NCBI RefSeq assembly: GCF_044704955.1
Contig: NC_091997.1
Span: 64,976,001-65,040,000, forward strand
Origin: Pristiophorus japonicus
Taxonomy: Eukaryota
Reading direction: 5' to 3'
Length of the DNA stretch: 64,000 nt
Shown: positions 9,277 to 61,930 of the stretch, one piece after another
Numbering within the stretch: position 1 is the stretch's first letter
Layout: each line of letters starts with the position of its first letter
Translations under genes and position numbers: made by a program
Notes under the pieces: model-generated
What the model was told of the DNA's origin: nothing
Seen by the model: the letters and a program-made list of their open reading frames with translations, nothing else
The model's database searches: none

Positions 9277-9982
9277 AAGAAAGACTTGCATTTATATAGC
9301 GCCTTTCACGACCACCGTATGTCACTAAATGCTTTACAGCCAATACGGTACTTTTTGAAGTGTGGTCACTGTTGTAATTTTGGAAATGCCACAACTAATT
9401 TGCACACAGCAAGCTCCCACAAACAGCAATGTGATAATGACCAGATAGTGTGTTTTAGTGATGTTGATTGAGGGATAAATATTGGCCCCAGGACACCGGG
9501 GAGAACTCCCCTGCTCTTTTAAGAAATAGTGCATGGGATCTTTTACATCCACCTGAGAGGGGCCTCGGTTTAACGTCTCATCTGAAAGATGGCACCTCCG
9601 ACAGTGCGGTGCTCCCTCAGCACTGCCCCTCCGACAGTGCGGCGCTCCCTCAGTACTGCCCCTCCGACAGTGTGGCGCTCCCTCAATACTGCCCCTCCGA
9701 CAGTGCGGTGCTCCCTCAGTACTGCCCCTCCGACAGTGCGGCACTCCCTCAGTACTGCCCCTCCGACAGTGTGGCGCTCCCTCAATACTGCCCCTCCGAC
9801 AGTGCGGCACTCCCTCAGTACTGCCCCTCCGACAGTGTGGCGCTCCCTCAATACTGCCCCTCCGACAGTGCGGTGCTCCCTCAGTACCGCACTGGGAGCG
9901 TCAGCCTAGATTTATTTGTTGCTCAAGTCCCTGGAGTCTAACCCAGAGGCGAGAGTGCTGCCCCCTGAGCCACGGCTGACAC
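9277..9982 (-). mobile_element. Deu-domain SINE with 9 tandem 33-bp internal units
   Basis: SINE head and tail plus (CCGACAGTGCGGCGCTCCCTCAGTACTGCCCCT)-type repeats at ~9595-9890. Confidence 0.9.
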
Positions 9983-24339: not shown

Positions 24340-25445
24340 TCCAGTCTGACACTCCAGTGCCGTACTGAGGGAGCGCCGCACTGTCGGAGAGGCAGTACTG
24401 AGGGAGCGCCGCACTGTCGGAGGGGCAGTACTGAGGGAGTGCCGCACTGTCGGAGGGGCAGTACTGAGGGAGTGCCGCACTGTCGGAGGGGCAGTACTGA
24501 GGGAGCGCCGCACTGTCGGAGAGGCAGTACTGAGGGAGCGCCGCACTGTCGGAGGGGCAGTACTGAGGGAGTGCCGCACTGTCGGAGGGGCAGTACTGAG
24601 GGAGTGCCGCACTGTCGGAGGGGCAGTACTGAGGGAACGCCGCACTGTCGGAGGGGCAGTACTGAGGGAGCGCTGCACTGTCGGAGGGGCAGTACTGAGG
24701 GAGCGCGCACTGTCGGAGAGGCAGTGCTGAGGGAGCGCGCACTGTTGGAGGGGCAGTACTGAGGGAGCGCCGCACTGTCGGAGGGGCAGTACTGAGGGAG
24801 CGCCGCACTGTCGGAGGGGCAGTACTGAGGGAGTGCCGCACTGTCGGAGGGGCAGTACTGAGGGAGCGCCGCACTGTCGGAGGGGCAGTACTGAGGGAGC
24901 GCTGCACTGTCGGAGGGGCAGTACTGAGGGAGCGCGCACTGTCGGAGAGGCAGTGCTGAGGGAGCGCGCACTGTCGGAGGGGCAGTACTGAGGGAGCGCC
25001 GCACTGTCGGAGGGGCAGTACTGAGGGAGCGCCGCACTGTCGGAGGGGCAGTACTGAGGGAGTGCTGCACTGTCGGAGGGGCAGTACTGAGGGAGTGCCG
25101 CACTGTCGGAGGGGCAGTACTGAGGGAGTGCCGCACTGTCGGAGGGGCAGTACTGAGGGAGCGCCGCACTGTCGGAGGTGCTGTCTTTCAGATGCGACGT
25201 TAAATCCAGGCCCCGTCTGCTCTCTCAGGTGGATGTAAAAGATCCATGGTATTATTTCAAAGAAGAGCAGGGGAGTTCTCCCCGGTGTCCTTGGGCCAAT
25301 ATTTATCCCCCAATCAGCATAACAAAAACAGATTATCTGGGTCATTATCACATTGCTGTGTGTGGGTGCTTGCCAAAGTACTTCATTGGCTGTAAAGTGC
25401 TTTGAAATGTCCAGTGGTTGTGAAAGGCGCAAGTCTTTTTTTTCT
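24340..25445 (+). mobile_element. Deu-domain SINE (head truncated) with ~25 tandem 33-bp internal units
   Basis: Array ~24362-25178 followed by Deu core and SINE tail. Confidence 0.9.
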
Positions 25446-25918: not shown

Positions 25919-28900
25919 CCCTGAAGGTGCTGACTCTCCCTGGGGTACAGTCCCTGAAGGTGCTGACTCTCCCTGGGGTACAGTCCCTGAAGGTGCTGAC
26001 TCTCCCTGGGGTACAGTCCCTGAAGGTGCTGACTCTCCCTGGGATACAGTCCCTGAAGGTGCTGACTCTCCCTGGGGTACAGTCCCTGAAGGTGCTGACT
26101 CTCCCTGGGGTACAGTCCCTGAAGGTGCTGACTCTCCCTGGGCTACAGTCCCTGAAGGTGCTGACTCTCCCTGGGGTACAGTCCCTGAAGGTGCTGACTC
26201 TCCCTGGGGTACAGTCCCTGAAGGTGCTGACTCTCCCTGGGGTACAGTCCCTGAAGGTGCTGACTCTCCCTGGGGTACAGTCCCTGAAGGTGCTAACTCT
26301 CCCTGGGCTACAGTCCCTGAAGGTGCTGACTCTCCCTGGGGTACAGTCCCTGAAGGTGCTGACTCTCCCTGGGGTACAGTCCCTGAAGGTGCTGACTCTC
26401 CCTGGGGTACAGTCCCTGAAGGTGCTGACTCTCCCTGGGATACAGTCCCTGAAGGTGCTGACTCTCCCTGGGGTACAGTCCCTGAAGGTGCTGACTCTCC
26501 CTGGGCTACAGTCCCTGAAGGTGCTGACTCTCCCTGGGGTACAGTCCCTGAAGGTGCTGACTCTCCCTGGGCTACAGTCCCTGAAGGTGCTGACTCTCCC
26601 TGGGGTACAGTCCCTGAAGGTGCTGACTCTCCCTGGGGTACAATCCCTGAAGGTGCTGACTCTCCCTGGGGTACAGTCCCTGAAGGTGCTGACTCTCCCT
26701 GGGGTACAGTCCCTGAAGGTGCTAACTCTCCCTGGGCTACAGTCCCTGAAGGTGCTGACTCTCCCTGGGGTACAGTCCCTGAAGGTGCTGACTCTCCCTG
26801 GGGTACAGTCCCTGAAGGTGCTGACTCTCCCTGGGGTACAGTCCCTGAAGGTGCTGACTCTCCCTGGGGTACAGTCCCTGAAGGTGCTGACTCTCCCTGG
26901 GGTACAGTCCCTGAAGGTGCTGACTCTCCCTGGGGTACAGTCCCTGAAGGTGCTGACTCTCCCTGGGGTACAGTCCCTGAAGGTGCTGACTCTCCCTGGG
27001 GTACAGTCCCTGACTCTCCCTGGGGTACAGTCCCTGAAGGTGCTGACTCTCCCTGGGGTACAGTCCCTGAAGGTGCTGACTCTCCCTGGGGTACAGTCCC
27101 TGAAGGTGCTGACTCTCCCTGGGCTACAGTCCCTGAAGGTGCTGACTCTCCCTGGGGTACAGTCCCTGAAGGTGCTGACTCTCCCTGGGCTACAGTCCCT
27201 GAAGGTGCTGACTCTCCCTGGGGTACAGTCCCTGAAGGTGCTGACTCTCGCTGGGGTACAGTCCCTGAAGTTGCTGACTCTCCCTGGGGTACAGTCCCTG
27301 AAGGTGCTAACTCTCCCTGGGCTACAGTCCCTGAAGGTGCTGACTCTCCCTGGGCTACAGTCCCTGAAGGTGCTGACTCTCCCTGGGGTACAGTCCCTGA
27401 AGGTGCTGACTCTCCCTGGGGTACAGTCCCTGAAGGTGCTGACTCTCCCTGGGGTACAGTCCCTGAAGGTGCTGACTCTCCCTGGGCTACAGTCCCTGAA
27501 GGTGCTGACTCTCCCTGGGGTACAGTCCCTGAAGGTGCTGACTCTCCCTGGGCTACAGTCCCTGAAGGTGCTGACTCTCCCTGGGGTACAGTCCCTGAAG
27601 GTGCTGACTCTCCCTGGGCTACAGTCCCTGAAGGTGCTGACTCTCCCTGGGGTACAGTCCCTGAAGGTGCTGACTCTCCCTGGGGTACAGTCCCTGAAGG
27701 TGCTGACTCTCCCTGGGGTACAGTCCCTGAAGGTGCTGACTCTCCCTGGGGTACAGTCCCTGAAGGTGCTAACTCTCCCTGGGCTACAGTCCCTGAAGGT
27801 GCTGACTCTCCCTGGGGTACAGTCCCTGAAGGTGCTGACTCTCCCTGGGGTACAGTCCCTGAAGGTGCTGACTCTCCCTGGGGTACAGTCCCTGAAGGTG
27901 CTGACTCTCCCTGGGATACAGTCCCTGAAGGTGCTGACTCTCCCTGGGGTACAGTCCCTGAAGGTGCTGACTCTCCCTGGGCTACAGTCCCTGAAGGTGC
28001 TGACTCTCCCTGGGGTACAGTCCCTGAAGGTGCTGACTCTCCCTGGGCTACAGTCCCTGAAGGTGCTGACTCTCCCTGGGGTACAGTCCCTGAAGGTGCT
28101 GACTCTCCCTGGGGTACAATCCCTGAAGGTGCTGACTCTCCCTGGGGTACAGTCCCTGAAGGTGCTGACTCTCCCTGGGGTACAGTCCCTGAAGGTGCTA
28201 ACTCTCCCTGGGCTACAGTCCCTGAAGGTGCTGACTCTCCCTGGGGTACAGTCCCTGAAGGTGCTGACTCTCCCTGGGGTACAGTCCCTGAAGGTGCTGA
28301 CTCTCCCTGGGGTACAGTCCCTGAAGGTGCTGACTCTCCCTGGGGTACAGTCCCTGAAGGTGCTGACTCTCCCTGGGGTACAGTCCCTGAAGGTGCTGAC
28401 TCTCCCTGGGGTACAGTCCCTGAAGGTGCTGACTCTCCCTGGGGTACAGTCCCTGACTCTCCCTGGGGTACAGTCCCTGAAGGTGCTGACTCTCCCTGGG
28501 GTACAGTCCCTGAAGGTGCTGACTCTCCCTGGGGTACAGTCCCTGAAGGTGCTGACTCTCCCTGGGCTACAGTCCCTGAAGGTGCTGACTCTCCCTGGGG
28601 TACAGTCCCTGAAGGTGCTGACTCTCCCTGGGCTACAGTCCCTGAAGGTGCTGACTCTCCCTGGGGTACAGTCCCTGAAGGTGCTGACTCTCGCTGGGGT
28701 ACAGTCCCTGAAGTTGCTGACTCTCCCTGGGGTACAGTCCCTGAAGGTGCTAACTCTCCCTGGGCTACAGTCCCTGAAGGTGCTGACTCTCCCTGGGCTA
28801 CAGTCCCTGAAGGTGCTGACTCTCCCTGGGGTACAGTCCCTGAAGGTGCTGACTCTCCCTGGGGTACAGTCCCTGAAGGTGCTGACTCTCCCTGGGGTAC

Positions 28901-29560
28901 AGTCCCTGAAGGTGCTGACTCTCCCTGGGCTACAGTCCCTGAAGGTGCTGACTCTCCCTGGGGTACAGTCCCTGAAGGTGCTGACTCTCCCTGGGCTACA
29001 GTCCCTGAAGGTGCTGACTCTCCCTGGGGTACAGTCCCTGAAGGTGCTGACTCTCCCTGGGGTACAGTCCCTGAAGGTGCTGACTCTCCCTGGGGTACAT
29101 TCCCTGAAGGTGCTGACTTTCCCTGGGGTACAGTCCCTGAAGGTGCTGACTCTCCCTGGGGTACAGTCCCTGAAGGTGCTGACTCTCCCTGGGGTACAGT
29201 CCCTGAAGGTGCTGACTCTCCCTGGGGTACAGTCCCTGAAGGTGCTGACTCTCCCTGGGGTACAGTCCCTGAAGGTGCTGACTCTCCCTGGGGTACAGTC
29301 CCTGAAGGTGCTGACTCTCCCTGGGGTACAGTCCCTGAAGGGGCTGACTCTCCCTGGAGTACAGTGCCTGAAGGGGCTGACTCTCCCTGGGGTACAGTCC
29401 CTGAAGGTGCCGACTCTCCCTGGGGTACAGTCCCTGAAGGTGCTGACTCTCACTGGGGTACAGTCCCTGAAGGTGCTGACTCTCACTGGGGTACAGTGCC
29501 TGAAGGGGCTGACTCTCCCTGGGGTACAGTCCCTGAAGGTGCTGACTCTCACTGGGTACA
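25919..29560. repeat. 33-bp minisatellite, ~110 units (CCCTGAAGGTGCTGACTCTCCCTGGGGTACAGT)
   Basis: Directly visible; 11-aa periodicity in the ORF track. Confidence 0.98.
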
Positions 29561-29954
29561 TTCCTCAGGTATAGTAGCCCTATTGTGTGGGTCCAGACAG
29601 TGTTGGGAGGCTGGTCAGCTGTGGATGAATCGTAGTTGTGAATACTCATCCAATGTCTACACTTGCACACTTTCCAGGAGAGGGTTAATGAATAATGATT
29701 GGGAGTGGAAACTTTGTCTGGTTTATTCCTCCCTGGCCAGCTGCCCAATCTGGCGGTCACCTCATCTGCAGTCAGATAACCCAACACAAAGCAGAGATCT
29801 AACTTGGCACCAGGTTCAGTTCCACAATGAACTGTGAATTCACCAACTGCCTGCCTGGGGCATTGCCCCTGCACAAGGCTCTTGTTTAAACAGCTTTTAT
29901 TTTAGTCACAGAATCACAATCTGTGAATATGGATGAAGGCTATCGTAGCGCATC

Positions 29955-33989: not shown

Positions 33990-34290
33990 TTCCCTGTTCC
34001 CGATCCTGTACTGATTCCTTGTTCCCGATCCTGATTCCTCTGTTCCCGATCCTGTCCTGATTCCTTGTTCCCGATCCTGTACTGATTCCTCATTCCCTGC
34101 TCCCGATCCTGTACTGATTCTTGTTCCCGATCCTGTCCTGATTCCTTGTTCCCGATCCTGTCCTGATTCCTCATTCCCTGCTCCTGATCCTGTCCTGATT
34201 CCCTGCTCCCGATCCTGTACTGATTCCTTGTTCCCGATCCTGTCCTGATTCCCTGCTCCCGATCCTGTACTAATTCCTCGTTCCCAGTTA
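33990..34290. repeat. ~25-bp imperfect tandem repeat (TCCCGATCCTGT[A/C]CTGATTCC...)
   Basis: About 12 variant units visible. Confidence 0.9.
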
Positions 34291-35621: not shown

Positions 35622-37010
35622 CTATTTACAATGTGAGTCGATCTGGGGCCCTTCTTGCCCTGGTTGATCGTCTCGGTGTGAAAGCTGGTGTTGTTGAATC
35701 ATTTGTTGGGTCCTCGCTGGGCTGCTGTGCTGCTGGCCATGCTGAGCTGCCTGGTGTATTGGGCCCTGCAAGGCTGCTGTGGTGATGGGTTCTGCTTCGT
35801 GGTCAACCATGGTGCCGGTTGCTACTGGTGTGTGTGTTGGGGGATCAAAAAAGGTAGGGTCCAAGGTGGGTTGCTCAGGGTAGTCCGTGAATCTGAGTTT
35901 GATTTGGTCCAAGTGTTTCCAGTGAATGAGTCCATTTGAAAGTTTGACCCGAAACACCCTGCTCCCCTCTTTGGCCACGTCAGTGCCAGGAAGCCACTTG
36001 GGACCTTGTCCATAATTTAAAACAAATACAGGATCATTGATTTCAATCTCGCATGACACATTTGCGTTATCATGGTATGCACTTTGTTGAAGCCGCCTGC
36101 AATCTACCTGTTCATGTAGATCAGGGTGGACTAACGAGAACCTTGTCTTAAGTGCCCTTTTCATGAGCAGTTCAGCAGGTGGGATCCCAGTGAGTGAGTG
36201 GGGTCTCATGCGATAGCTAAGCAGGACTCTGGATAGGCGAGTCTGCGGTGAGCCTTCAGTTACCCTCTTCAAGCCTTGCTTGATGGTTTGCACTGCTCTC
36301 TCTGCCTGACCATTGGATGCTGGTTTGAACGGGGCAGATGTGACATGTTTGATCCCGTTACGGGTCATGAATTCTTTGAACTCAGCACTGGTAAAACATG
36401 GCCCGTTGTCGCTCACCAGGACATCGGGTAAGCCGTGTGTGGCAAACATGGCCCGCAGGCTTTCAGTAGTGGCAGCGGACGTGCTAGTCGATATTATCTC
36501 ACATTCAATCCACTTGGAGTACGCATCTACAACCACAAGGAACATTTTACCCAAAAATGGGACTGCATAGTTGACGTGTACCCTCGACCACGGTTTGGAG
36601 GGCCAAGACCATAAACTTAGCAGCGCCTCCCTGGGTGCATTGCTTAACTGCGAGCATGTATTACATCTGTGAATGCAGGACTCTAAGTCCGCATCGATAC
36701 CGGGCCACCACACGTGGGATCTGGCTATCACTTTCATCATTCCGATGCCTGGGTGGGTTCTGTGGAGGTCATTGATGAAGGTTTCGCTGCCCTTCTTGGG
36801 GACCACTACTCGATTGCCCCACAGAAGGCAGTCTGCCTGTATAGACATTACATCTTTGTGCCGCTGGAACGGCTTTATCTCTTCCTGCATTTCCACTGGG
36901 ACACTGGACCAGCTCCCATGAAGCACACAGCTTTTGACTAGATAATAAGGGGTCCTGGCTTGTCCAGGTTTTGATCTGCCGGGTAGTGACGGGTGATTGC
37001 TCACACTCAA
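35622..37010 (-). pseudogene. Gypsy integrase (HHCC + rve core)
   Basis: LHRTHPGIG...WWPGID...CNTC; LVSDNGPCF; SNGQAERAVQTIK. Confidence 0.92.
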
Positions 37011-37028
37011 ATGCTTCCATAACCACGG

Positions 37029-38751
37029 CTAGATCTGCGGACTGCGCCATTTCCACCCCCATGGTGGGCAATGGCAGCCTACTGAGAGCATCGGCGCAGT
37101 TTTCTGTGCCTGGCCTGTGGCGGATGGCGTAGTTGTATGCGGACAACGTGAGTGCCCTTTACTCTCGGAAAACATGGATATAAGTGGCTTATGGTCAGTT
37201 TCCAATTCGAATTTTAGCCCAAACAGGTATTGATGCATTTTCTTTACCCCATAGACACACGCTAACGCTTCTTTTTCAATCATGCTGTAGGCTCTCTCAG
37301 CCTTAGACAGACTCCTGGATGCATAAGCAACCGGTTGCAGTCTCCCGAAATCATTAGCTTGTTGCAATACACACCCGACGTCATATGACGACGCATCACA
37401 TGCTAGTACCAAATGGATCATACAACACAAGCAATTTGTTTGAGCATAACAATTTTCTCGCTTTTACAAAAGCATTTTCTTGGCTTTTTCTCCAAACCCA
37501 TTCGCCCGCTTTTCATAGTAAGACAGGCAGTGGTTGTAGCAGGGTGCTGAGACCCGGTAAGAAGTTACCAAAGTAGTTCAAGAGTCCCAGGAACGACCGC
37601 AGCTCCATCACGTTCTGTGGCCTCGGTGCGTTCTCGATTGCCTCTGTCTTCGCGTTGGTGGGTCTGATGCCGTCCGCCGCAAGCCTCCTTCCCAGGAACT
37701 CCATTTCAGGCGCCAGGAAAACGCACTTCGAGCGTTTTAACCTGAGCCCCACACGGTTGAGTCGACTAAGAACCTCCTCCAGGTTCTGCAGGTGCTCGGC
37801 TGTGATCCGACCTGTGACCAAGATGTCGTCCTGGAAGACCATCGTGCGTGGGACAGACTTCAGTAAACTTTCCATGTTTCTCTGGAATATCGCCGCCGCT
37901 GATCGGATTCCAAACGGGCATCTGTTATAAGCAAAAAGACCTTTGTGCTTGTTGATGCAGGTGAGGGCCTTTGATGATTCCTCCAGTTCCTGCGTCATGT
38001 AGGCTGAAGTCAGATCCAGCTTCGTGAACGTCTTTCCTCTCACCAGCGTTGTAAAGAGGTCATCGGCTTTTGGTAGTGGGTATTGGTCCTGCAGGGAGAA
38101 ATGATTGATAGTTACTTTGTAATCGCCACAGATTCTGACGGTGCCGTCTCCTTTGAGTACTGGGACAATAGGACTGGCCCATTCATTGAACTCGATCGGT
38201 GAAATTATGCCCTCCCTTTGCAGCCAGTCTAGCTCGATCTCTACCCTTTCTCTCATCATGTACGGTACTGCTCTCGCCTTGTGATGGATGGGTCGCGCCC
38301 CCGGAATTAGGTGGATCTGCACTTTTGCTCCTTGGAATTTCCCGATGCCTGGTTCGAACAGCGAAGGAAATTTGTTTAAGACCTGGGTACATGAAGTGTC
38401 GTCAGCGGGCGATAGCGCTCGGACGTCGTCCCAATTCCAGCGTATCTTTCCCAGTCAGCTCCTGCCGAGCAGCGTGGGACCATCGCCCGGTACCACCCAG
38501 AGTGGTAGCTTGTGCACCGCTCCATCGTAGGACACCTTTACGGTCGCACTGCCGATTACAGGAATCAGTTCTTTCGTGTAAGTTCTTAATTTCGTGCGAA
38601 TTGGAGTTAAGACTGGTCTTGAGGCCTTGTTGCACCACAAGCTTTCGAAAGTCTTTTTGCCCATGATGGACTGGCTCGCACCCGTGTCCAGCTCCATTGA
38701 CACCGGGAGTCCATTTCGTTCAACATTCAGCATTATCGGGGGACAATTCAT
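37029..38751 (-). pseudogene. Gypsy protease, RT and RNase H (frameshifted)
   Basis: MELDTGAS; WASPIVPV..VRICGDYK..FQDDILV; LACDASS..YSMIEKEALA..ETDHKPL. Confidence 0.92.
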
Positions 38752-38859
38752 GGTGAATGTGTGTACCCCATGTACCTCTGCTTCCTCTATCTGAGGCTCT
38801 GTTTCATCGTAATCCTCCTCTGCAACGTGGTGGTTTGCAGGTTTAACAGGCTTAGCAGC

Positions 38860-39633
38860 TCACCTGCACACTCGTTGGAGGTGTCCCATTGTTCCACAGC
38901 CCTTGCAAACGTATCCTTTGAATCGGCATGAATGGAAACGATGATCACCCCCGCAGCGCCAACAAGATGTTAATGGCCTTGCATTCATCACCCTTGATGG
39001 TGGACTCTGAGACATCTGTGGACGTGTAGCTGCAGCTATGTGAGACCTGCCCTGTACGTTACAATTCGAAAACAACATCACTTTGTTCACAGTACTTGTA
39101 GCAGCACTTGTGTGCTGAGAGATTTGCTTCGTATTTTCACTGGTGGCAATGAACGCCTGGGCTATCGCTATGGCCTTACTCAAGGTTGGGGTCTCTACAG
39201 TCAAAAGTATGGTTTTGTGGCCAATGCCAAGCACGAAAAAGTCTCTGAGCATGTTCTCCAAATGTCATTCAAATTTGCAATGTCCTGCGAGGCGTCTTAG
39301 CTTGGCGGCATAACTCGCCACTTCCTGGCCTTCAGACCTTTTGTAGGTGTAGAACCGATACCTCGCCATCAGAACGCTTTCCTTCGGGTTCAAATGCTCC
39401 CGGACAAGTGTGCACAAATCGTCGTAAGATTTCTGCGTGGGTTTTGCTGGAGTGAGCAGATTCTTCATGAGGCCATACGTTGGTGCCCCACAGACGGTGA
39501 GGAGGATCGCCCTTCGTTTGGCAGCGCTCTCTTCCCCATCGAGCTCGTTGGCCACAATGTATTGGTTGAGTTGCTCCACAAAAGTTTCCCAATCATCTCC
39601 CTCCGAAAATTTCTCCAGGATACCAGTGGGCAT
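38860..39633 (-). pseudogene. Gypsy gag with two CCHC knuckles (frameshifted)
   Basis: CWRCGGDHRFHSC and CKGCGTMGHLQRVC. Confidence 0.88.
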
Positions 39634-41206
39634 CTTCGGGTTTGCTATCTGTATCTCGTCGCCAGTTGTTGTGTATGGAGAAAGAGTCAGACTGAATACT
39701 GTGAGCTCAAAGTAACGTGTGACCTGAGTCTTTCATTACAGGTCTCCAGAGTGCCTCTCCAACCTGTGAAGCCTTCTTAAATACCTGCGCTCCGAAGGGA
39801 TTATGGGATCCCTTGGGACTCCGGGGAATGAGCCCGCTGTACCGTAAATACAAGTCCACATATATAACATTAACGCCCCACGGGCCACCAGGCTGGCGTA
39901 CATCCGTTCCCGGGGCGCTGTTTAAAAGGGGAGGCCTGCAACTCCCTGGGCTGCCATCTTTGTTGGTCGGCCCGACCATGGCAGCCATCGTGCAACCTGG
40001 CACTCCGTCTTGGGTGCCGGGGCCCGATCGCACACTTCCCTGGGGACCTGGTGGCACGCACCAAAGGGCCATGCAGAGTGCGCAGTGGCCCTGCCCGTTA
40101 ATGGAAGCGGAGGGGCGCTGTAGCGCATCAACGCGACACGGAGCATCTGCGTAATGCTGGACTCAGCGCCGTGCCCCCGCCCCGGGGGCCGCCCCTCAAG
40201 GGAAGCGGAGCGCCAGAGACAGCGCTCCACTTCCTTTGACGGGCACACGGCCCAATTCTGATTTCTAGTGGAGCTGATCCCTCCACCAGCGATGGTGAAA
40301 CTTACCCCCATTCGCTGCTCCATCGCCCCAACTACTGCCTGGCCACCCCCAACATGGATTAGATGGAGTCAAGCTCACTCCACTGGGCGACTGCAGGAAG
40401 AATTTTATTCGTAGATTAAACCCTTCCCTGCACCTAACCTGGGCTAATCTGGGAGACGCGGACATATCGCACTGCCGCGCAGTGACATCTCTCAATTTGA
40501 GTATTAAATTCTGGGATGCATCAATTGATTTCACACACACACATGCACACACGGGTATTCAACCTGCACAACATTTTTATACAGAATGTCAATAATTTAG
40601 TACGAAACCTTCGGCTCATCTCCCCTCCTGATATCTAATCATCTTTGCTGTGCACGTACTTTCCTCAGCTCTTTCAAAACAAACCTTCAGTTCTTTCACT
40701 TGAAGCAACGGATCCCTGTTTTTAACTTAATGAAATTGTCCAAAAATATATCTAATTTTAAAAATAAGATACCTCAGCTCTTTCTGCAGTGATGTTAGTG
40801 TTTGATATATCAAAGGAAACTCGACGCAGGAAGCATGCACAGTTGTGACCTGAAATGCGGCTGCTTATTATTGGTCAAGAGACTAGACAACCACCATCTT
40901 GCTGGAGGCCCTGGGCTTAATTTTGCCCAAAGCCGTTTTTTGGCGTATTGCCAGAGTTACGGCCGTTTTTCTAGGCCAGATCTACTCCAAAAATAAATGT
41001 GCCATGTTTCCCCGCTGTATTTTACAAAATTGGCGACGCGCAGCCTGTCTAGTCACCTCGGAGGGTGGAGCCTGCTGTCCGCACCGAAAAAACAATGTCT
41101 CCCCTTCTGCGCATGCGCAAAAGAAAAAGGACATGTTTGACGTGATTTCAATGGGCGCGCATGCGCAGTACAGCTCCCGCTCTGCGATCGGCCATTTTTA
41201 AAGAGC

Positions 41207-41825: not shown

Positions 41826-42565
41826 TGAAAGAAAGAAAGATTTGGATTTATATGGCGTCTTTCACAACTACCAGACGTCGCAAAGTGCTATAAAGCCAAC
41901 TAAGTACTTTTGAAGTGTAGTCACTGTTGTAATATGGGAAACGCAGCAGCCAATTTGCGCACAGCAAGCTCCCACAAACAGCAATGTGATTGAAGGATAA
42001 ATATTGGCCACAGGACACCGGGGATAACTCCCCTGCTCTTCTTCGAAATAGTGCCCTGGGATCTTTTACGTCCGCCTGAGAGGGCAGACGGGGCCTCGGT
42101 TTAGCGTCTCATCCAAAAGACAACCCCTCCGACAGTGCAGCTCTTCCTCAGTACTGCCCCTCCGACAGTGCAGCACTCCCTCAGTACTGCCCCTCCGACA
42201 GTGCGGTACTCCCTCAGTCCTGCCCCTCCGACAGTGCGGCGCTCCCTCAGTACTGCCCCTCCGACAGTGCGGCACTCCCTCAGTACTGCCCCTCCGACAG
42301 TGCGGCATTCCCTCAGTACTGCCCCTCTGACAGTGCGGCATTCCCTCAGTACTGCCCCTCCGACAGTGCGGTACTCCCTCAGTCCTGCCCCTCCGACAGT
42401 GCGGCGCTCCCTCAGTACTGCCCCTCCGACAGTGCGGCGCTCCCTCAGTACTGCCCCTCCGACAGTGCGGCATTCCCTCAGTACTGCACTGGAAGTGTCA
42501 GCCTAGATTTCTGCGCTCAAGTCTCTGAAGTGGAACTTGAACTCACTTAGAGGCTACCCACTGAG
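41826..42565 (-). mobile_element. Deu-domain SINE with 11 internal 33-bp units
   Basis: Array ~42128-42487 inside the SINE body. Confidence 0.9.
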
Positions 42566-48411: not shown

Positions 48412-48945
48412 ACATAGAAACATAGAAAATAGGTGCAGGAGTAGGCCATTTGGCCCTTCGAGCCTGCACCATCATTCAATAAGATCATGGCTGATCATTC
48501 CCTCAGTACCCCTTTCCTGCTTTCTCTCCATACCCCTTGATCCCTTTAGCCGTAAGGGCCATATCTAACTCCCTCTTGAATATATCCAATGAACTGGCAT
48601 CAACAACTCTCTGCGGCAGGGAATTCCACAGGTTAACAACTCTCTGAGTGAAGAAGTTTCTCCTCATCTCAGTCCTAAATGGCCTACCCCTTATCCTAAG
48701 ACTGTGTCCCCTGGTTCTGGACTTCCCCAACATCGGGAACATTCTACCCGCATCTAACCTGTCCCGTCCCGTCAGAATCTTATATGTTTCTATGAGATCC
48801 CCTCTCATCCTTCTAAACCCCAGTGTATAAAGGCCCAGTTGATCCAGTCTCTCCTCATATGTCAATCCAGTCATCCCGGGAATCAGTCTGGTGAACCTTC
48901 GCTGCACTCCCTCAATAGCAAGAACGTCCTTCCTCAGATAAGGAC
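48412..48945 (-). mobile_element. CR1 3' fragment nested in the Gypsy integrase
   Basis: AATTAA duplicated at 48406-48411 and 48946-48951; removing the insert restores PVFVLN-YSHGPKW. Confidence 0.92.
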
Positions 48946-49574
48946 AATTAAGGACAAACACCGGGTCGTTAACATCAATGTCACGCGATACAGCCGTGCG
49001 ATCGTGGTACACGTTATGCCGGTGACGCCAGGTTTCCACATGATCATTTAGGTCCGGGTGGACTAGGGAGAGCCTGGTTTTGAGTGTTCTCTTCATTAAC
49101 AATTCTGCCGGGGGAACCCCAGTGAGTGAGTGGGGGTGCGTCCGGTAGCTGAGCAGAACCCGAGATAAGCGGGTCGGCAAGGAGCTTTCCGTCACGCGTT
49201 TCAATAGTTTGGACTGCCCATTCTGCTTGACCGTTGGATGCGGGCTTAAACGGGGCAGACCTGACATGCTTGATGCCATTGCGGGTCGTAAACTCGTTGA
49301 ATTCCGAGCTGGTGAAACACGGTCCATTGTCACTGACAAGGACGTTGAGCAAGCCATGGGTGGCGAACATAGCCCCGAGGCTTTCAATGGTGGCAGTGGA
49401 CGTGCTGGACGACATGATTACGCATTCAATCCATTGAGAGTAAAAGTTCACTGCAACTAAAAACATCTTTACGAGAAAGGGGCCGGCAAAATCCTGGACC
49501 GCGGTTTGGAGGGCCATGACCACAGACTCAAATGGAGCCTCCCTTGGTGCATTTGCTCAACTGTGAGCACGTGT

Positions 49575-49923
49575 CGGCCTTTTGGCTAAGATCATGCATA
49601 ACTGACCTGACCAGCCACCATGACCTCCGGGTGGTTTCTCCCTGGTCAGGAAGGTATATGCTTGCTTTTTTGGAAACAGGAGGTGGGTGGGGTGGCTTGA
49701 CCCATCCACCTCCACGGAGGTGTGTGGGGGACCTGACCCATCCACCTCCATGGCACGAACCTGGTATTGCAGTACTTCCAGGAACGGTGCAGTGGCTCTA
49801 GGCCTTTTGGCTAAGAGCATTGGCGCAGAGTGATCCTTGGCATGTGCAAGGTGACCTCTGGCGTTTGTGATTTGACAAAGAATTGGAACGATTGGCTACG
49901 AATTTCCCAAAAAAAAAAAAAAA
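49575..49923 (+). mobile_element. U2/U1 snRNA-chimeric short retroposon (SINEU-like), copy 1, missing ~9 nt at the 5' end
   Basis: CGGCCTTTTGGCTAAGATCA (U2 5' end), ACCTGGTATTGCAGTACTTCCAGGAACGGTGCA (U2 SLIV), poly(A), 16-bp TSD AACTGTGAGCACGTGT (49559-49574, 49924-49939). Confidence 0.9.
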
Positions 49924-52900
49924 AACTGTGAGCACGTGTTGCACTGGTGTACACATGACTCTAAGTCCGAGTCAATGCCGGGCCACCAAACATGCGACCT
50001 GGCTATAGCCTTCATCATGACTATGCCTGGGTTGGTATTGTATAGGTCGCGTGTAAACGTTTCCCTGCCTTTTTTGGGCAAAACCACATGATTACCCCAT
50101 AAGAGACAATCCGACTGGATGAACATTTCATCTTTGCGTCGGTGAAATGGCTTAATTTCATCTTGCATTTCCCCGGGAACGGCCAACCAGCTCCCATTGA
50201 GGACGCAACTTTTTACAAGTGATAGCACAGGGTCCTGGCTGGTCCAGGTCCTGATCTGGCGAGCAGTGATGGGTGACCCCTCACCCTCAAAAGCATCCAT
50301 GACCAGAAGCAAGTCTGCGGGCTGCGACATTTCCACCCCGGTAGTGGGCAATGGTAGCCGACTGAGGGCATCAGCACAGTTCTCCGTGCCTGGTCTCTGG
50401 CGGATAACATGGTCATAGACAGACAATGTTAGTGCCCATCTTTGGATGCGTGATGAAGCATTGGTGTTTATACCTTTGCTTTCTGAAAACAACGAAATGA
50501 GCGGTTTGTGGTCGGTTTCAAGCTCAAACCGAAGTCCAAATAGGTATTGGTGCATTTTCTTAACCCCATATACACATGTTAATGTCTCTTTCTCGACCAT
50601 ACTATAGGCTCTTTCAGCCTTAGACAGACTTCTAGATGCGTATGCAACCAGTTGAGGTTTGCCCGATACGTTGGTTTGCTGCAACACACAGCCGACCCCG
50701 TATGAAGATGCAACACAAACTAGCACTAATCATTTACATGGGTCATACAGTACAAGTAACTTATTAGAACAAAGTAGGTTTCTGGCCTTCTCAAAGGCTG
50801 TCTCTTGAGATTTACCCCAAACCCCAGTTGTCACCATTACGTAGCAACATGTGCAACGGTTCCAGCAAAATGCTTAACCCGGGTAGAAAGTTACCAAAAT
50901 AGTTGAGGAATCCCAGGAACGAACTCCGTCACATTCTGTTGTCTGGGTGCATTCTTGATGGCCTCTGTCTTTGAGTCCGTGGGTCTGATGCCGTCTGCCG
51001 CAATCTTTCTCCCCAAAAATTCGACCTCTGGCACCAGGAAAACACACTTGGAGTGTTTAAGCCTGAGTCCCACTCTGTCTAGTCGACTTAGAACCTCTTC
51101 CAGGTTGTGCAGGTGTTCAGTGATGTCACGACCAGTGATCAGGATGTCATCTTGAAACACAATGGTGTGCGGAACCGATTTCAGCAGACTTTCCATGTTC
51201 CTCTGGAAGATGGCAGCAGCCGAGCGAAACCCAAAAGGACACCTGTGGTATATAAACAGTCCTTTGTGTGTGTTGATGCACGTCAATCTTTTCGAAGATT
51301 CAGCCAGCTCCTGTGTCATGTAGGCGGAGGTTAGATCCAGCTTGGTGAACGACTTCCCCCCTGCTAGCATTGTGAACAGGTCATCCGCCTTGGGCAGCGG
51401 GTACTGGTCTTGTAACGAGTCTCGGTTGATCGTTACCTTGTAGTCTCCGCAGATTCTGACCGTGCCATCGCTTTTCAACACCGGAACAATCGGACTGGCC
51501 CACTCGTTGAACTCAACTGGCGATATGATTTCCTCACATTGAAGTCTGTCCAGTTCGATCTCGACTTTCTCCCTCATCATATATGGAACCGCTCGAGCCT
51601 TGTGATGAACGAGCCTTGCATCGGGGACTAGATGGATCTGCACCTTGGCGCCTGTGAAGTTGCCGATGCCTGGTTCGAATAGCGACAGAAACTTGCTCAG
51701 CACTTGGGCGCACGAGGCATCGTCCACTGAAGATAATGCTTTGATGTCGTCCCAGTTCCATCGAATCTTTCCTAGCCAGCTTCTGCCGAACAGCGTTGGG
51801 CTATCGCCTGGTACAATCCACAGTGATGTCATGCACAGCTCCATTGTACGATACCTTCACTGCCGCATGGCCAATGACTGGTATGAGCTCTTTGTTGTAG
51901 GTGCGCAACTTTGTCTGAATCGGGCTCAGTTTGGGCCTTTGTGCCTTGTTGCCCCAGTTTCTCAAAAGCCTTCTGGCTCATAATTGACTGACTCGCCCCC
52001 GTGTCCAACTCCATTGATACCGGAATACCGTTCAATTTGACTTTCAGCATGATAGGAGGGCTCTTGGTGGTAAAGGTGTGTAACCCATACATTTCTTCCT
52101 CGGGTTGAGTTGCCTCTCTTGTTTGTTCTGCGTGATCCGCGCCGGATTGACCATCTTCTGCCGACTCTGCCACTTGGTGAGTCGCAGCACATTTGCACAT
52201 TCGCTGGAGGTGCCCCATTGTTTCGCAGCCTTTGCACATGTTGTGCTTGAATCGACAGTGATGGGCTCTATGATTACCCCCGCAGCGCCAACATGGTGCT
52301 AATGGATTTGCATTCACGCCCGATAGCGGACTCGGAGTCATGCTCGGTCTTGCAGCTGCAGACGTGTGGGCCCTGCCATGTACAGTTCTGCCTGCAAGCG
52401 ACGTTATTTTATGCACAGTACTTGCCGGTGAGCTTCGAGTCTGGGAAGATATCTGTCTGGTATTATCGCTCGTGGATATGAATACCTGGGCTATCGTGAT
52501 GGCCTTGCTCAGGTCGAGGGATTCGGCGGACAGCAGCTTGCGAAGAATGACCTCGTGGCCGATGCCAAGCACAAAAAAGTCCCGCAGCATTTCCCAAAAG
52601 AATCCAGCAAATTCGCAAGTTCCCGCAAGGTGTCTCAGGTCGGCGACAATCCTGGCCCTCAGAGCGGTGGTGGGTGTAGAAGACCAGTGTACACAACTCT
52701 GTATATATCTTCTCCACTGGTTTCTCCGGTGCTAGCAGATGCTTGGTGAGGCCGTATATTGTGGACCCACACACGGTGAGGAGAATCGCCCTGCGCTTTA
52801 TCGCTTTATCGTCCCCATCCAGCTCGTTGGCCACGAAGTACTGGTCGAGACGCTCAACAAAGGCTTTCCAATCATCACCCTCTACAAATCTCTCTAAAAT

Positions 52901-53384
52901 ACCAATGGCAGCCATGACCGTGTGAAAGTTCATAATCTGTTACTCGTCGCCAATTGTTAAGTATGGAAGAGCTCCACAAGACTGAGTACTGTGAGCTAAA
53001 ACTGATGCGACCTTAGTCTATTTAATACAACTCCAGAGTGCTTAAGCAGCCTGGCGGACAACCTTTTATACTCCCTTGCACGAGGTGTGCAGGTGACCCT
53101 TGGGCCTCCAACAGTTGCGCCCTCTGGTGGCAAGTCTTACACAGTTACAATGTTTACATTCATAACAATTCTGACTTTGTGTAACGGTATAAAATGGATT
53201 GGTAGCGAGTTGGCAGCTCGTTTTACATCTCTTCCCCCACTGGTTGCAATGGAAATAAAACTCGGGAGAGATGTAAAACCGGCTGGCAATTTGCTATCAT
53301 CCGTTTCATGCTATTACACGGAGTCAAAACTCCCCCCAGATTGCGCAGTCCCTCAGGGATTGGGAGAATGAATGAACTACCTAC

Positions 53385-59451: not shown

Positions 59452-59463
59452 CAACAGCTCTAG

Positions 59464-59817
59464 ATCGCTTCTTGGCCTTTTGGCTAAGATCATGCGTAAC
59501 TGACCTGACAGGGGAGTAACCATGACCAAAAAGTGGTTCTCCCTGGATCAGGAAGGTGGTTCTCCTATGCTTTTTGGAAATAGGAGGTGGGTGGGGTGGC
59601 TTGACCCATCCACCTCCACGGAGGTGTGTGGGGGACCTGACCCATCCACCTCCATGGCACGAACCTGGTATTGCAGTACTTCCAGGAACGGTGCAGTGGC
59701 TCTCGGCCTTTTGGCTAAGAGCATTGGCGCAGAGTGATCCTTGACAGGTGCAGGGTGACCTCTGGCGTTTGTGATTTGACAAAGAATTGGAAAGATTGGC
59801 AACGAATAAAAAAAAAA
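59464..59817 (+). mobile_element. U2/U1 snRNA-chimeric short retroposon (SINEU-like), copy 2, full length
   Basis: Starts at U2 +1 (ATCGCTTCTTGGCCTTTTGGCTAAGATCA); U1-like ACTGACCTGACAGGGGAGTAACCATGA...GTGGTTCTCCC; U2 SLIV; poly(A); 11-bp TSD AACAGCTCTAG (59453-59463, 59818-59828). Confidence 0.92.
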
Positions 59818-60469
59818 AACAGCTCTAGCATATTGACAGGTGCATACATTACATAAACCCATTATCGGGTTCTCCTGTTTCATCCAACATTTCTTTTTTT
59901 TCCTAATTTTAACTTTTCCTCTTTTCTACCTGGTTACCCATTTTGCGAGCTTTTTCCAAAGTTTAAAGCCACTCATTTTCCTTTCTTTTTCTGTCTCCTT
60001 GCTCCATAATTCAATTTGATGAGCAGGTTAAAATCTTTTGGCTGTTTCTTTGCCAGGATTCTGAGGCCTGCCCTGAATCCTGGGGAGAGTTTCTGTGAAA
60101 TTTGTGTCAGATGTTGGCACTTGCGTTTCCCTCCAGGATCCAAGTGTTCATGCGGCAGCTGGGAGTGCACTTGTTAAAATTCCGAGAGTATATGGTTCAT
60201 GTCGCTGACTCAGTGTGCACTGCATCAACTTAACACTAAAGGAAAATATTTACAAGTTTTTCTTTAAAAGAATTGTCTTTCTGCCTGATACTCAGACAAT
60301 GAGTAACGGAGCTGTACAGACCAGAAGGCCCAGCTTTCATTCACTGCCTGTGTCCAGTTCATTCATCTCAGTTGGGTGGCAATGGGGACACTGCAATAAG
60401 GAACGTCGGAACAGGAGGAGGCCATTCAGCCCTTCCAGCCTTTTTCGGCGTTCCTTATTGTAGTGTGAA

Positions 60470-61417: not shown

Positions 61418-61930
61418 CCTTGCAGCACCTATGGATTTGCAGCCTTGCAGCACCCATGAAAATGCACCCTTGTAGCACCCATGGAAATGCACCCTTGCAG
61501 CACCCATGGAAATGCGCCCTTGCAGCCCCCGTGGATTTGCAGCCTTGCGGCACCCATGGATTTGCACCCTTGCAGCACCCATGGATTTGCACCCTTGCAG
61601 CACCCATAGATTTGCATCCTTGCAGCACCCATGGAAATGCACCCTTGTAGTACCCATGGAAATGTATCCTTGCAGCACCCATAGAAATGTATCCTTGCAG
61701 CACCCATCCAGCATCCATGGATTTGCAGCACCCATGGGAATGCACCCTTGTAGCACCCATAGAAATGTACCCTTGTAGCACCCATAGAAATGTACCCTTG
61801 CAGCATCCATGGATTTGCAGCCTTGCAGCACCCATGGATTTGGAGCCTTGCAGCACCCATGGAAATGCACCCTTGCAGCACCCATGGATTTGGAGCCTTG
61901 CAGCACCCATGGAAATGCACCCTTGCAGCA
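61418..61930. repeat. 25-bp minisatellite (CCTTGCAGCACCCATGGA[AA/TT]TGCA[C/G]), ~20 units
   Basis: Directly visible. Confidence 0.95.

Follow-up and report, generated by a model that had tools for sequence, protein, structure and literature searches.

The 64,000-nt window, by which we mean the whole stretch of DNA analysed here, carries a 344-nt element on its plus strand that is a mosaic of U2 and U1 snRNA modules and belongs to a real, young, dispersed and non-autonomous SINEU-like retroposon family. Copies of the youngest subfamily lie inside both classes of U2 gene in this shark genome, reaching from the U2 transcription start (+1) to U2 nt 39, which is a new observation. We propose, at a probability of roughly two in three, that the element is a retroposon that has captured the U2 promoter, is moved by a Keno-like LINE and has a U2 head that acts as its homology arm. 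The modules of the window element, with borders set against the U2 and U1 genes of the same genome, and a second copy of the family are as follows:

59453-59463, plus strand: target-site duplication, 5' copy, 11 bp
59464-59492, plus strand: U2 nt 1-29 as head (stem-loop I; a single mismatch to the genome's own U2)
59499-59552, plus strand: U1 nt 3-57 relative to the genome's own U1 (stem-loop I and an altered 5'-splice-site-pairing stretch)
59553-59565, plus strand: U1 nt 35-47, repeated exactly
59568-59618, plus strand: U2 nt 97-145 (U run of the Sm site and stem-loop III, copy 1)
59617-59696, plus strand: U2 nt 109-186 (stem-loop III, copy 2, then stem-loop IV)
59701-59723, plus strand: U2 nt 7-29, second U2 5' module
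59724-59807, plus strand: tail, 84 nt, with a homologue in the sister family described below
59808-59819, plus strand: poly(A)
59818-59828, plus strand: target-site duplication, 3' copy, 11 bp
49559-49939, plus strand: second family copy, of another subfamily, 90% identical, beginning near nt 9-11 and ending in poly(A)
49559-49574 and 49924-49939: 16-bp duplication of the second copy

Five snRNA segments of the window copy each outscored 1000 of 1000 shuffles when compared with the genome's own U2 or U1. The Rfam U2 model matches 59464-59701 at 60.9 bits (gathering threshold 46), and the Rfam U1 model matches 59497-59616 with an E-value of 3e-4, under gathering. The head module ends 5' of the branch-point-pairing sequence, and the element's 5'-splice-site stretch carries one change. 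The doubled stem-loop III is a 36-bp tandem duplication in which both hairpins fold, with a near-identical copy folding at z -4.95. In the Sm-like site, the run of five U residues at 59571-59575 is present and the preceding A of the host U2 site is lost. With U2 nt 30-96 missing, the Sm A gone and the U1 5' motif both altered and internal, the element does not have the make-up of a functional snRNA. For the 84-nt tail, 176 of 1000 shuffles were equally good against U2 and 998 of 1000 against U1.

Most of these parts had been described in an earlier note based on the letters of the DNA. Its U2 nt 1-29 head was confirmed against the genome's own U2, including the one mismatch, its tandem stem-loop III-like hairpins correspond to the 36-bp duplication, and its U2 stem-loop IV, second U2 5' module, tail, poly(A) and 11-bp duplication were all recovered. 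The U1 5' module that it described is present, with borders that had to be moved from about 59498-59546 to 59499-59552, while its U2 Sm-like site retains the U run but not the A. It overlooked the second copy, as well as the Keno site, partner LINE, sister family and truncation hot spot described below.

The second copy matches Rfam U2 at 47.2 bits (49566-49797) and is embedded among Gypsy-type remnants. Two decayed Gypsy-type LTR retrotransposons occupy the minus strand at 35622-39732 and 48503-52939; RT is found in both and integrase domains in the former. The two family copies lie 10 kb apart, and the genome average is approximately one per 1.1 Mb. The window also contains a 33-bp tandem array of 111 copies (25919-29564) with stop-free frames of more than 1,100 codons on both strands, which is probably a minisatellite and not a gene. 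Another 33-bp unit forms arrays within a dispersed repeat family (9595-9887, 24362-25178 and 42124-42487), and 25-bp arrays are found at 33990-34285 and 61418-61930.

A very low copy number, which the earlier note had named as weighing against its proposal, was not what we found: a family-specific 20-mer has 5,144 exact occurrences in the 5.92-Gb genome, and its reversed control has none. This 20-mer is found in 103 of 108 sampled copies, and the family comprises about 5,000-6,000 copies, older copies being uncounted. An estimate of approximately 200,000 copies, derived from 224,200 first-look U2 candidates and the two copies in this one window, was ruled out by the exact count. A search of sequencing runs listed no RNA run containing the element, a result that speaks neither for nor against expression; the runs that did contain it came from one organism (seven runs, three of them not marked as a possible source) and in part from a second (share 0.27), shares of 0.06 being disregarded. 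The best 39 other copies are 97-98% identical. In a position-ordered sample, consisting of the first 40 solitary copies on contig C1, 25 copies start at nt 1-15, a duplication is detectable in 22, and identity to whichever of six reference copies is closest averages 96%. Target-site duplications across the family measure 8-22 bp, and subfamilies differ in their U1 part and in the number of hairpins (one or two). Tandem copies with a duplication between them are frequent (L002, L008, L018, L022, L024 and L025). Copy number, duplications, poly(A) and fixed module junctions together bear out the proposal of a SINEU-like mosaic retroposon.

The module junctions are common to 41 aligned full-length rows, which is difficult to reconcile with the idea that copies are independent chimeras that gained their U2 heads by template switching at each insertion, although single U1 additions do exist, as U1 5' pieces are prefixed to a truncated copy (L084) and to a sister-family copy (L148). 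An internal Pol III promoter could be suspected from A-box-like strings in the element's 3' part, but a scan of the element allowing one mismatch found no B box. Runs of four to five T residues occur at nt 15, 108 and 246, and those at 15 and 108, where transcripts would terminate, argue against Pol III transcription. The head therefore has no internal Pol III promoter of the kind found in a strict SINE, and a tRNA scan of the 64-kb window found no tRNA. Both the independent-chimera and the Pol III explanations are already largely refuted, and we regard them as extremely improbable.

The element has a specific site in U2. Its tail runs on into U2-like sequence in 37 of 45 rows and its poly(A) joins U2 nt 39 in nine of ten inspected copies, a junction published as the site of Keno and Utopia (PMC4640811, PMC6136364). 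About 1% of the family lies at U2 nt 38/39 and about 99% is dispersed. The same U2 array houses a 5.7-kb LINE (L042, G000:C1003:17628-23371) with a zinc knuckle in ORF1 and APE, RT and zf-RVT in an open ORF2, and the poly(A) of this LINE also joins U2 nt 39. APE and RT in a Tx1-type two-ORF layout, together with the 3' junction at nt 39, correspond to Keno; the relatives BAD04856.1 (39%) and BAC82621.1 (37%) are records that bear no family name, and the LINE is called Keno-like here. The nearest named relatives come from one ray and two sharks (75-83%), with amphibian relatives at 40-61%, in agreement with the shark-like host, at class level, that had been proposed from the letters.

The Keno-like LINE is young, relaxed in site choice and widely dispersed; among the best 40 3' ends of 2,699 candidates, 17 fall in U2 arrays and 23 outside them by coordinates. 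Its own U2-like head follows U2 upstream DNA at +1 in four of five junctions inspected, possibly reflecting one event, while the fifth features a 15-bp duplication and filler before the head. This suggests that the LINE may also be transcribed from U2 promoters (L042, L043, L104 and L132-L135). The U2 arrays are thus eroded by two passengers, the element and the LINE, at one base. At one further locus (L019, 1500-3343, minus strand), the poly(A) of an element is joined to an nt-39-like site in the head of the Keno-like LINE.

Reverse transcription of the element in trans by this Keno-like Tx1 LINE, primed at poly(A), with relaxed specificity and no common tail, is very probable. Most mobilisation could instead be due to another L1/Tx1 family, with the Keno-like LINE responsible only for copies at U2 nt 38/39, and other L1/Tx1-type elements are abundant (3,758 candidates). 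This would fit the approximately 99% of copies that lie away from U2 sites, and also the finding that the element and the Keno-like LINE have no tail in common (best E-value 0.64); the element is neither derived from its partner LINE nor equipped with a common 3' UTR, as an R2 SIDE would be. A U2-like preference at 46 dispersed sites was equalled by 1 of 3000 controls but was not replicated in 20 fresh sites, where 640 of 3000 controls equalled it. The T (-7) and G (-6) that had looked U2-like in the 46 sites also failed in the fresh set (1473 of 3000 controls), and only T after the cut held, in 15 of 20 sites, a count that may be biased by T residues of the tail. The common target that links SINEU to a Tx1 partner is represented here by U2 nt 38/39 in about 1% of copies and by a dispersed motif that was not replicated. 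Against this stand the youth and wide dispersal of the Keno-like LINE, and we consider a different LINE to be quite unlikely.

Insertions at nt 38/39 were then compared by their 5' ends. Headless copies retain the U2 5' piece of the target in both evaluable cases (L108 and L220), and this piece is missing in six head-bearing insertions, of which only those on C19 and C9 are joined exactly at +1 to upstream DNA that is intact. In the copies embedded in U2 genes, the element starts at U2 +1 straight after the gene's upstream DNA and its poly(A) abuts U2 nt 39, giving the order upstream DNA, element, poly(A), U2 nt 39-191 and 3' flank; two tandem embedded units were read end to end and have the same order. 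Their upstream DNA is that of intact genes over 268 nt in class 1 (C19) and 340 of 340 nt in class 2, which is found on C9 and has different upstream DNA. Among the 40 rows listed, 17 are identical across the U2 upstream DNA and the element head, five on C19 and twelve on three short unplaced contigs; all 17 may represent one event, and the twelve may be redundant sequence. Class 2 carries an independent insertion in one of the 21 units listed. The embedded subfamily, the youngest, accounts for only two to three of the 40 position-ordered copies. 3' transduction of U2 nt 39-191 was also considered and was clean in none of the five loci read.

Because all 48 Rfam U2 matches listed fall in the two U2 arrays by coordinates, at least one U2 class is probably functional. 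Tandem U2 units of approximately 765 bp (L031-L050) feature GTT and GAT microsatellites and a GC box at -219 and are octamer-free, and the class on C9 has a spacing of about 18-21 kb. The earlier note had placed a master copy under a U2-type promoter. Copies that start at +1 within U2 genes lend weight to this, but the promoter elements themselves were not demonstrated: an octamer, allowing one mismatch, is absent upstream of both U2 classes (U1 genes do have one, at -204/-205), and a PSE-like block upstream of the two classes was equalled by 303 of 2000 and 1170 of 2000 shuffles. Nor was a promoter-linked copy of the window subfamily found among the 40 scored out of 1,353 candidates and the 40 out of 1,181; the one copy of the window's type that lies within a U2 array (L106, in a C9 unit) is missing its upstream DNA.

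The tail of the embedded subfamily was used to pick 20 young dispersed copies, all of which are 98-100% identical and have a long, pure poly(A). One has the class 1 (C19) haplotype at eight of eight diagnostic sites and five have the class 2 (C9) haplotype; nine have haplotypes for which no promoter-linked source was found, and five are too short. The class 2 embedded copy has one private change, and the embedded copies could be daughters of sources not yet seen. These data bear on whether the sources might instead be ordinary dispersed copies, driven by promoters in their flanks or by read-through transcription, with the U2-embedded copies as dead-end daughters multiplied by array turnover. 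Transcription of this type was proposed by Kojima for crocodilian SINEU, and SINEU-2 has 5' extensions (PMC4494074). An embedded source was not found for about 95% of copies, several young haplotypes have none, and the PSE and octamer could not be demonstrated upstream of the U2 classes, all of which favours dispersed sources. Flanking promoters would not, however, generate the 30 full-length dispersed copies that end at or just after U2 +1 (nt 1-2) with unrelated flanks, U2 upstream DNA being absent from all 30 (at best 10 of 20 letters agree), and both independent embedded copies match dispersed ones. We consider dispersed sources unlikely.

The source copies are probably insertions into a genuine U2 gene, in which they took over U2 nt 1-38 and begin at the transcription start. 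At insertion, the U2 head of the cDNA would pair with the gene's own 5' end, a step for which annealing of target-derived 5' sequence in R2 provides a tested precedent (PMC3774820); alternatively, direct repeats would recombine later. Either way, the element would take the place of U2 nt 1-38, starting exactly at the U2 transcription start, and the external Pol II snRNA promoter would direct synthesis of an RNA of approximately 550 nt that comprises the element, poly(A) and U2 nt 39-191. Reverse transcription would be primed internally, at the poly(A) of this RNA, and the tandem U2 array would amplify the embedded units. On this model, the head would be a homology arm that captures a promoter, not a promoter.

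A sister family indicates how such a mosaic could have been assembled. Its members carry a nearly whole U2 and then U2 nt 7-38, and they end in a tail of 46 nt with poly(A). There are 993 candidates, of which the best 40 are 98-100% identical; near-full-length copies make up 27 of the 37 that were read. The sister-family tail is a homologue of the element's 84-nt tail (0 of 2000 shuffles as good), with its start precisely at the Keno site. Most of its loci (L108, L137, L139-L175 and L220-L222) have a short U2 deletion near nt 60, and the sister family has itself been hit by insertions at nt 38/39. Assembly may have begun with insertion of the tail into U2 at 38/39, after which a whole U2 would have been gained in front of the tail, and a truncated form would later have acquired the U1 and U2 heads. 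New subfamilies would then arise as more U1 or U2 pieces were added at the 5' end.

The 5' ends of the element are bimodal, with truncations clustered just 3' of the U run. Of 30 copies chosen by their tail, the set on which the zone was defined, 25 have their truncated start between -3 and +28 of this run, as do five of five copies of the youngest subfamily and nine of 15 from the C1 sample (P = 5e-5 versus uniform), yet only five of ten from the sister family (P = 0.05). A separate short master was ruled out by a tree of 66 rows, from which the youngest subfamily had been removed by a motif filter: short copies are intermingled with full ones (13 changes, no fewer than seven of them forced), so truncation recurs. 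One candidate cause is an Sm-like protein ring that blocks reverse transcription at the U run; another is a decay product guarded by the G-rich hairpin from nt 120. Clustering is weaker in the sister family, many members of which have a genuine Sm site, and this lends no support to the ring model. This bears on a wider reading, in which the family follows a promoter-capture cycle with no LINE-derived sequence, behaves as a decoy snRNP and has all of its subfamilies descended from U2-embedded sources; a protein ring on the U run would then stop reverse transcription and yield truncations just 3' of the run. We put this forward tentatively as a doubtful extension. If it were true, crocodilian SINEU could have the same U2-embedded origin.

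Among known systems, the element is most readily compared with SINEU-1, -2 and -3 (PMC4494074). Like these, it is shorter than 500 bp, combines U1 and U2 modules with poly(A) and is present in thousands of copies, and the two also have in common successive additions at the 5' end, tandem copies flanking a duplication (seen in crocodilian SINEU-3), internal T runs and, probably, a Tx1-clade partner. A U1/U2 head, a short non-coding poly(A)-tailed repeat, a common structure and recurrent 5' additions thus all agree with SINEU in general, whereas the crocodilian distribution and Mariner-N4 target of SINEU-1/-2/-3 are replaced here by an elasmobranch host and the U2 nt 38/39 site. The shark element also differs in its three U2 modules and doubled stem-loop III, and in having copies inside U2 genes at +1; for SINEU, the same source reports no promoter and left transcription open in 2015 (PMC4494074), and a 2018 report still describes it as not demonstrated (PMC5786205). 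Homology to crocodilian SINEU, through an old common ancestor or horizontal transfer, might be suspected from SINEU-2, in which 5' U1 is fused near nt 53-58 to 3' U2, from SINEU-3, which joins U2 nt 1-32 to a middle part of 83 bp, and from the clustering of Tx1-Mar with Keno (all in PMC4494074). The U1 module is nevertheless nearer, by eye, to this genome's U1 than to two quoted SINEU-2 stretches, the sister family offers a local assembly route, and copies are about 96% identical to their nearest reference copy. We therefore view homology as highly unlikely and an origin independent of crocodilian SINEU, from which published descriptions set the family apart, as likely.

Within the same host class, SacSINE1 and the CmiSINEs have tRNA heads and L2-type tails and no snRNA part (PMC5499810). 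In searches of the open full-text literature, we found neither an snRNA-derived SINE in cartilaginous fishes nor a SINE sourced from U2 genes, and snRNA-headed SINEs have so far been described from crocodilians only. U1 and U2 processed pseudogenes and chimeric retrocopies resemble the element in their snRNA content, poly(A) and duplications, but are one-off events (PMC4494074), whereas the shark element is a fixed, propagating mosaic with subfamilies. With Keno and Utopia (PMC4640811, PMC6136364), it has in common the 3' junction at U2 nt 39; unlike Keno, it is non-coding, has no body or tail in common with the LINE and is about 99% dispersed. The closest parallel in life cycle comes from R2 elements with upstream-28S heads and their SIDEs, for which PMC3774820 describes co-transcription from a host multigene target, target-derived 5' sequence, annealing that yields uniform 5' junctions, and non-autonomous passengers. 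SIDEs carry the R2 ribozyme and an R2-like 3' UTR and are confined to rDNA in that account, while neither applies to the shark element; in contrast to R2, the host 5' end would itself be the RNA start, the proposed promoter is a Pol II promoter of the kind used by snRNA genes, and the majority of copies move out of the array. The U2-embedded copies provide named candidate source loci for promoter-less snRNA-headed elements and, if the proposed cycle is true, SINE-like elements also arise by capture of an external promoter via a target-specific LINE.
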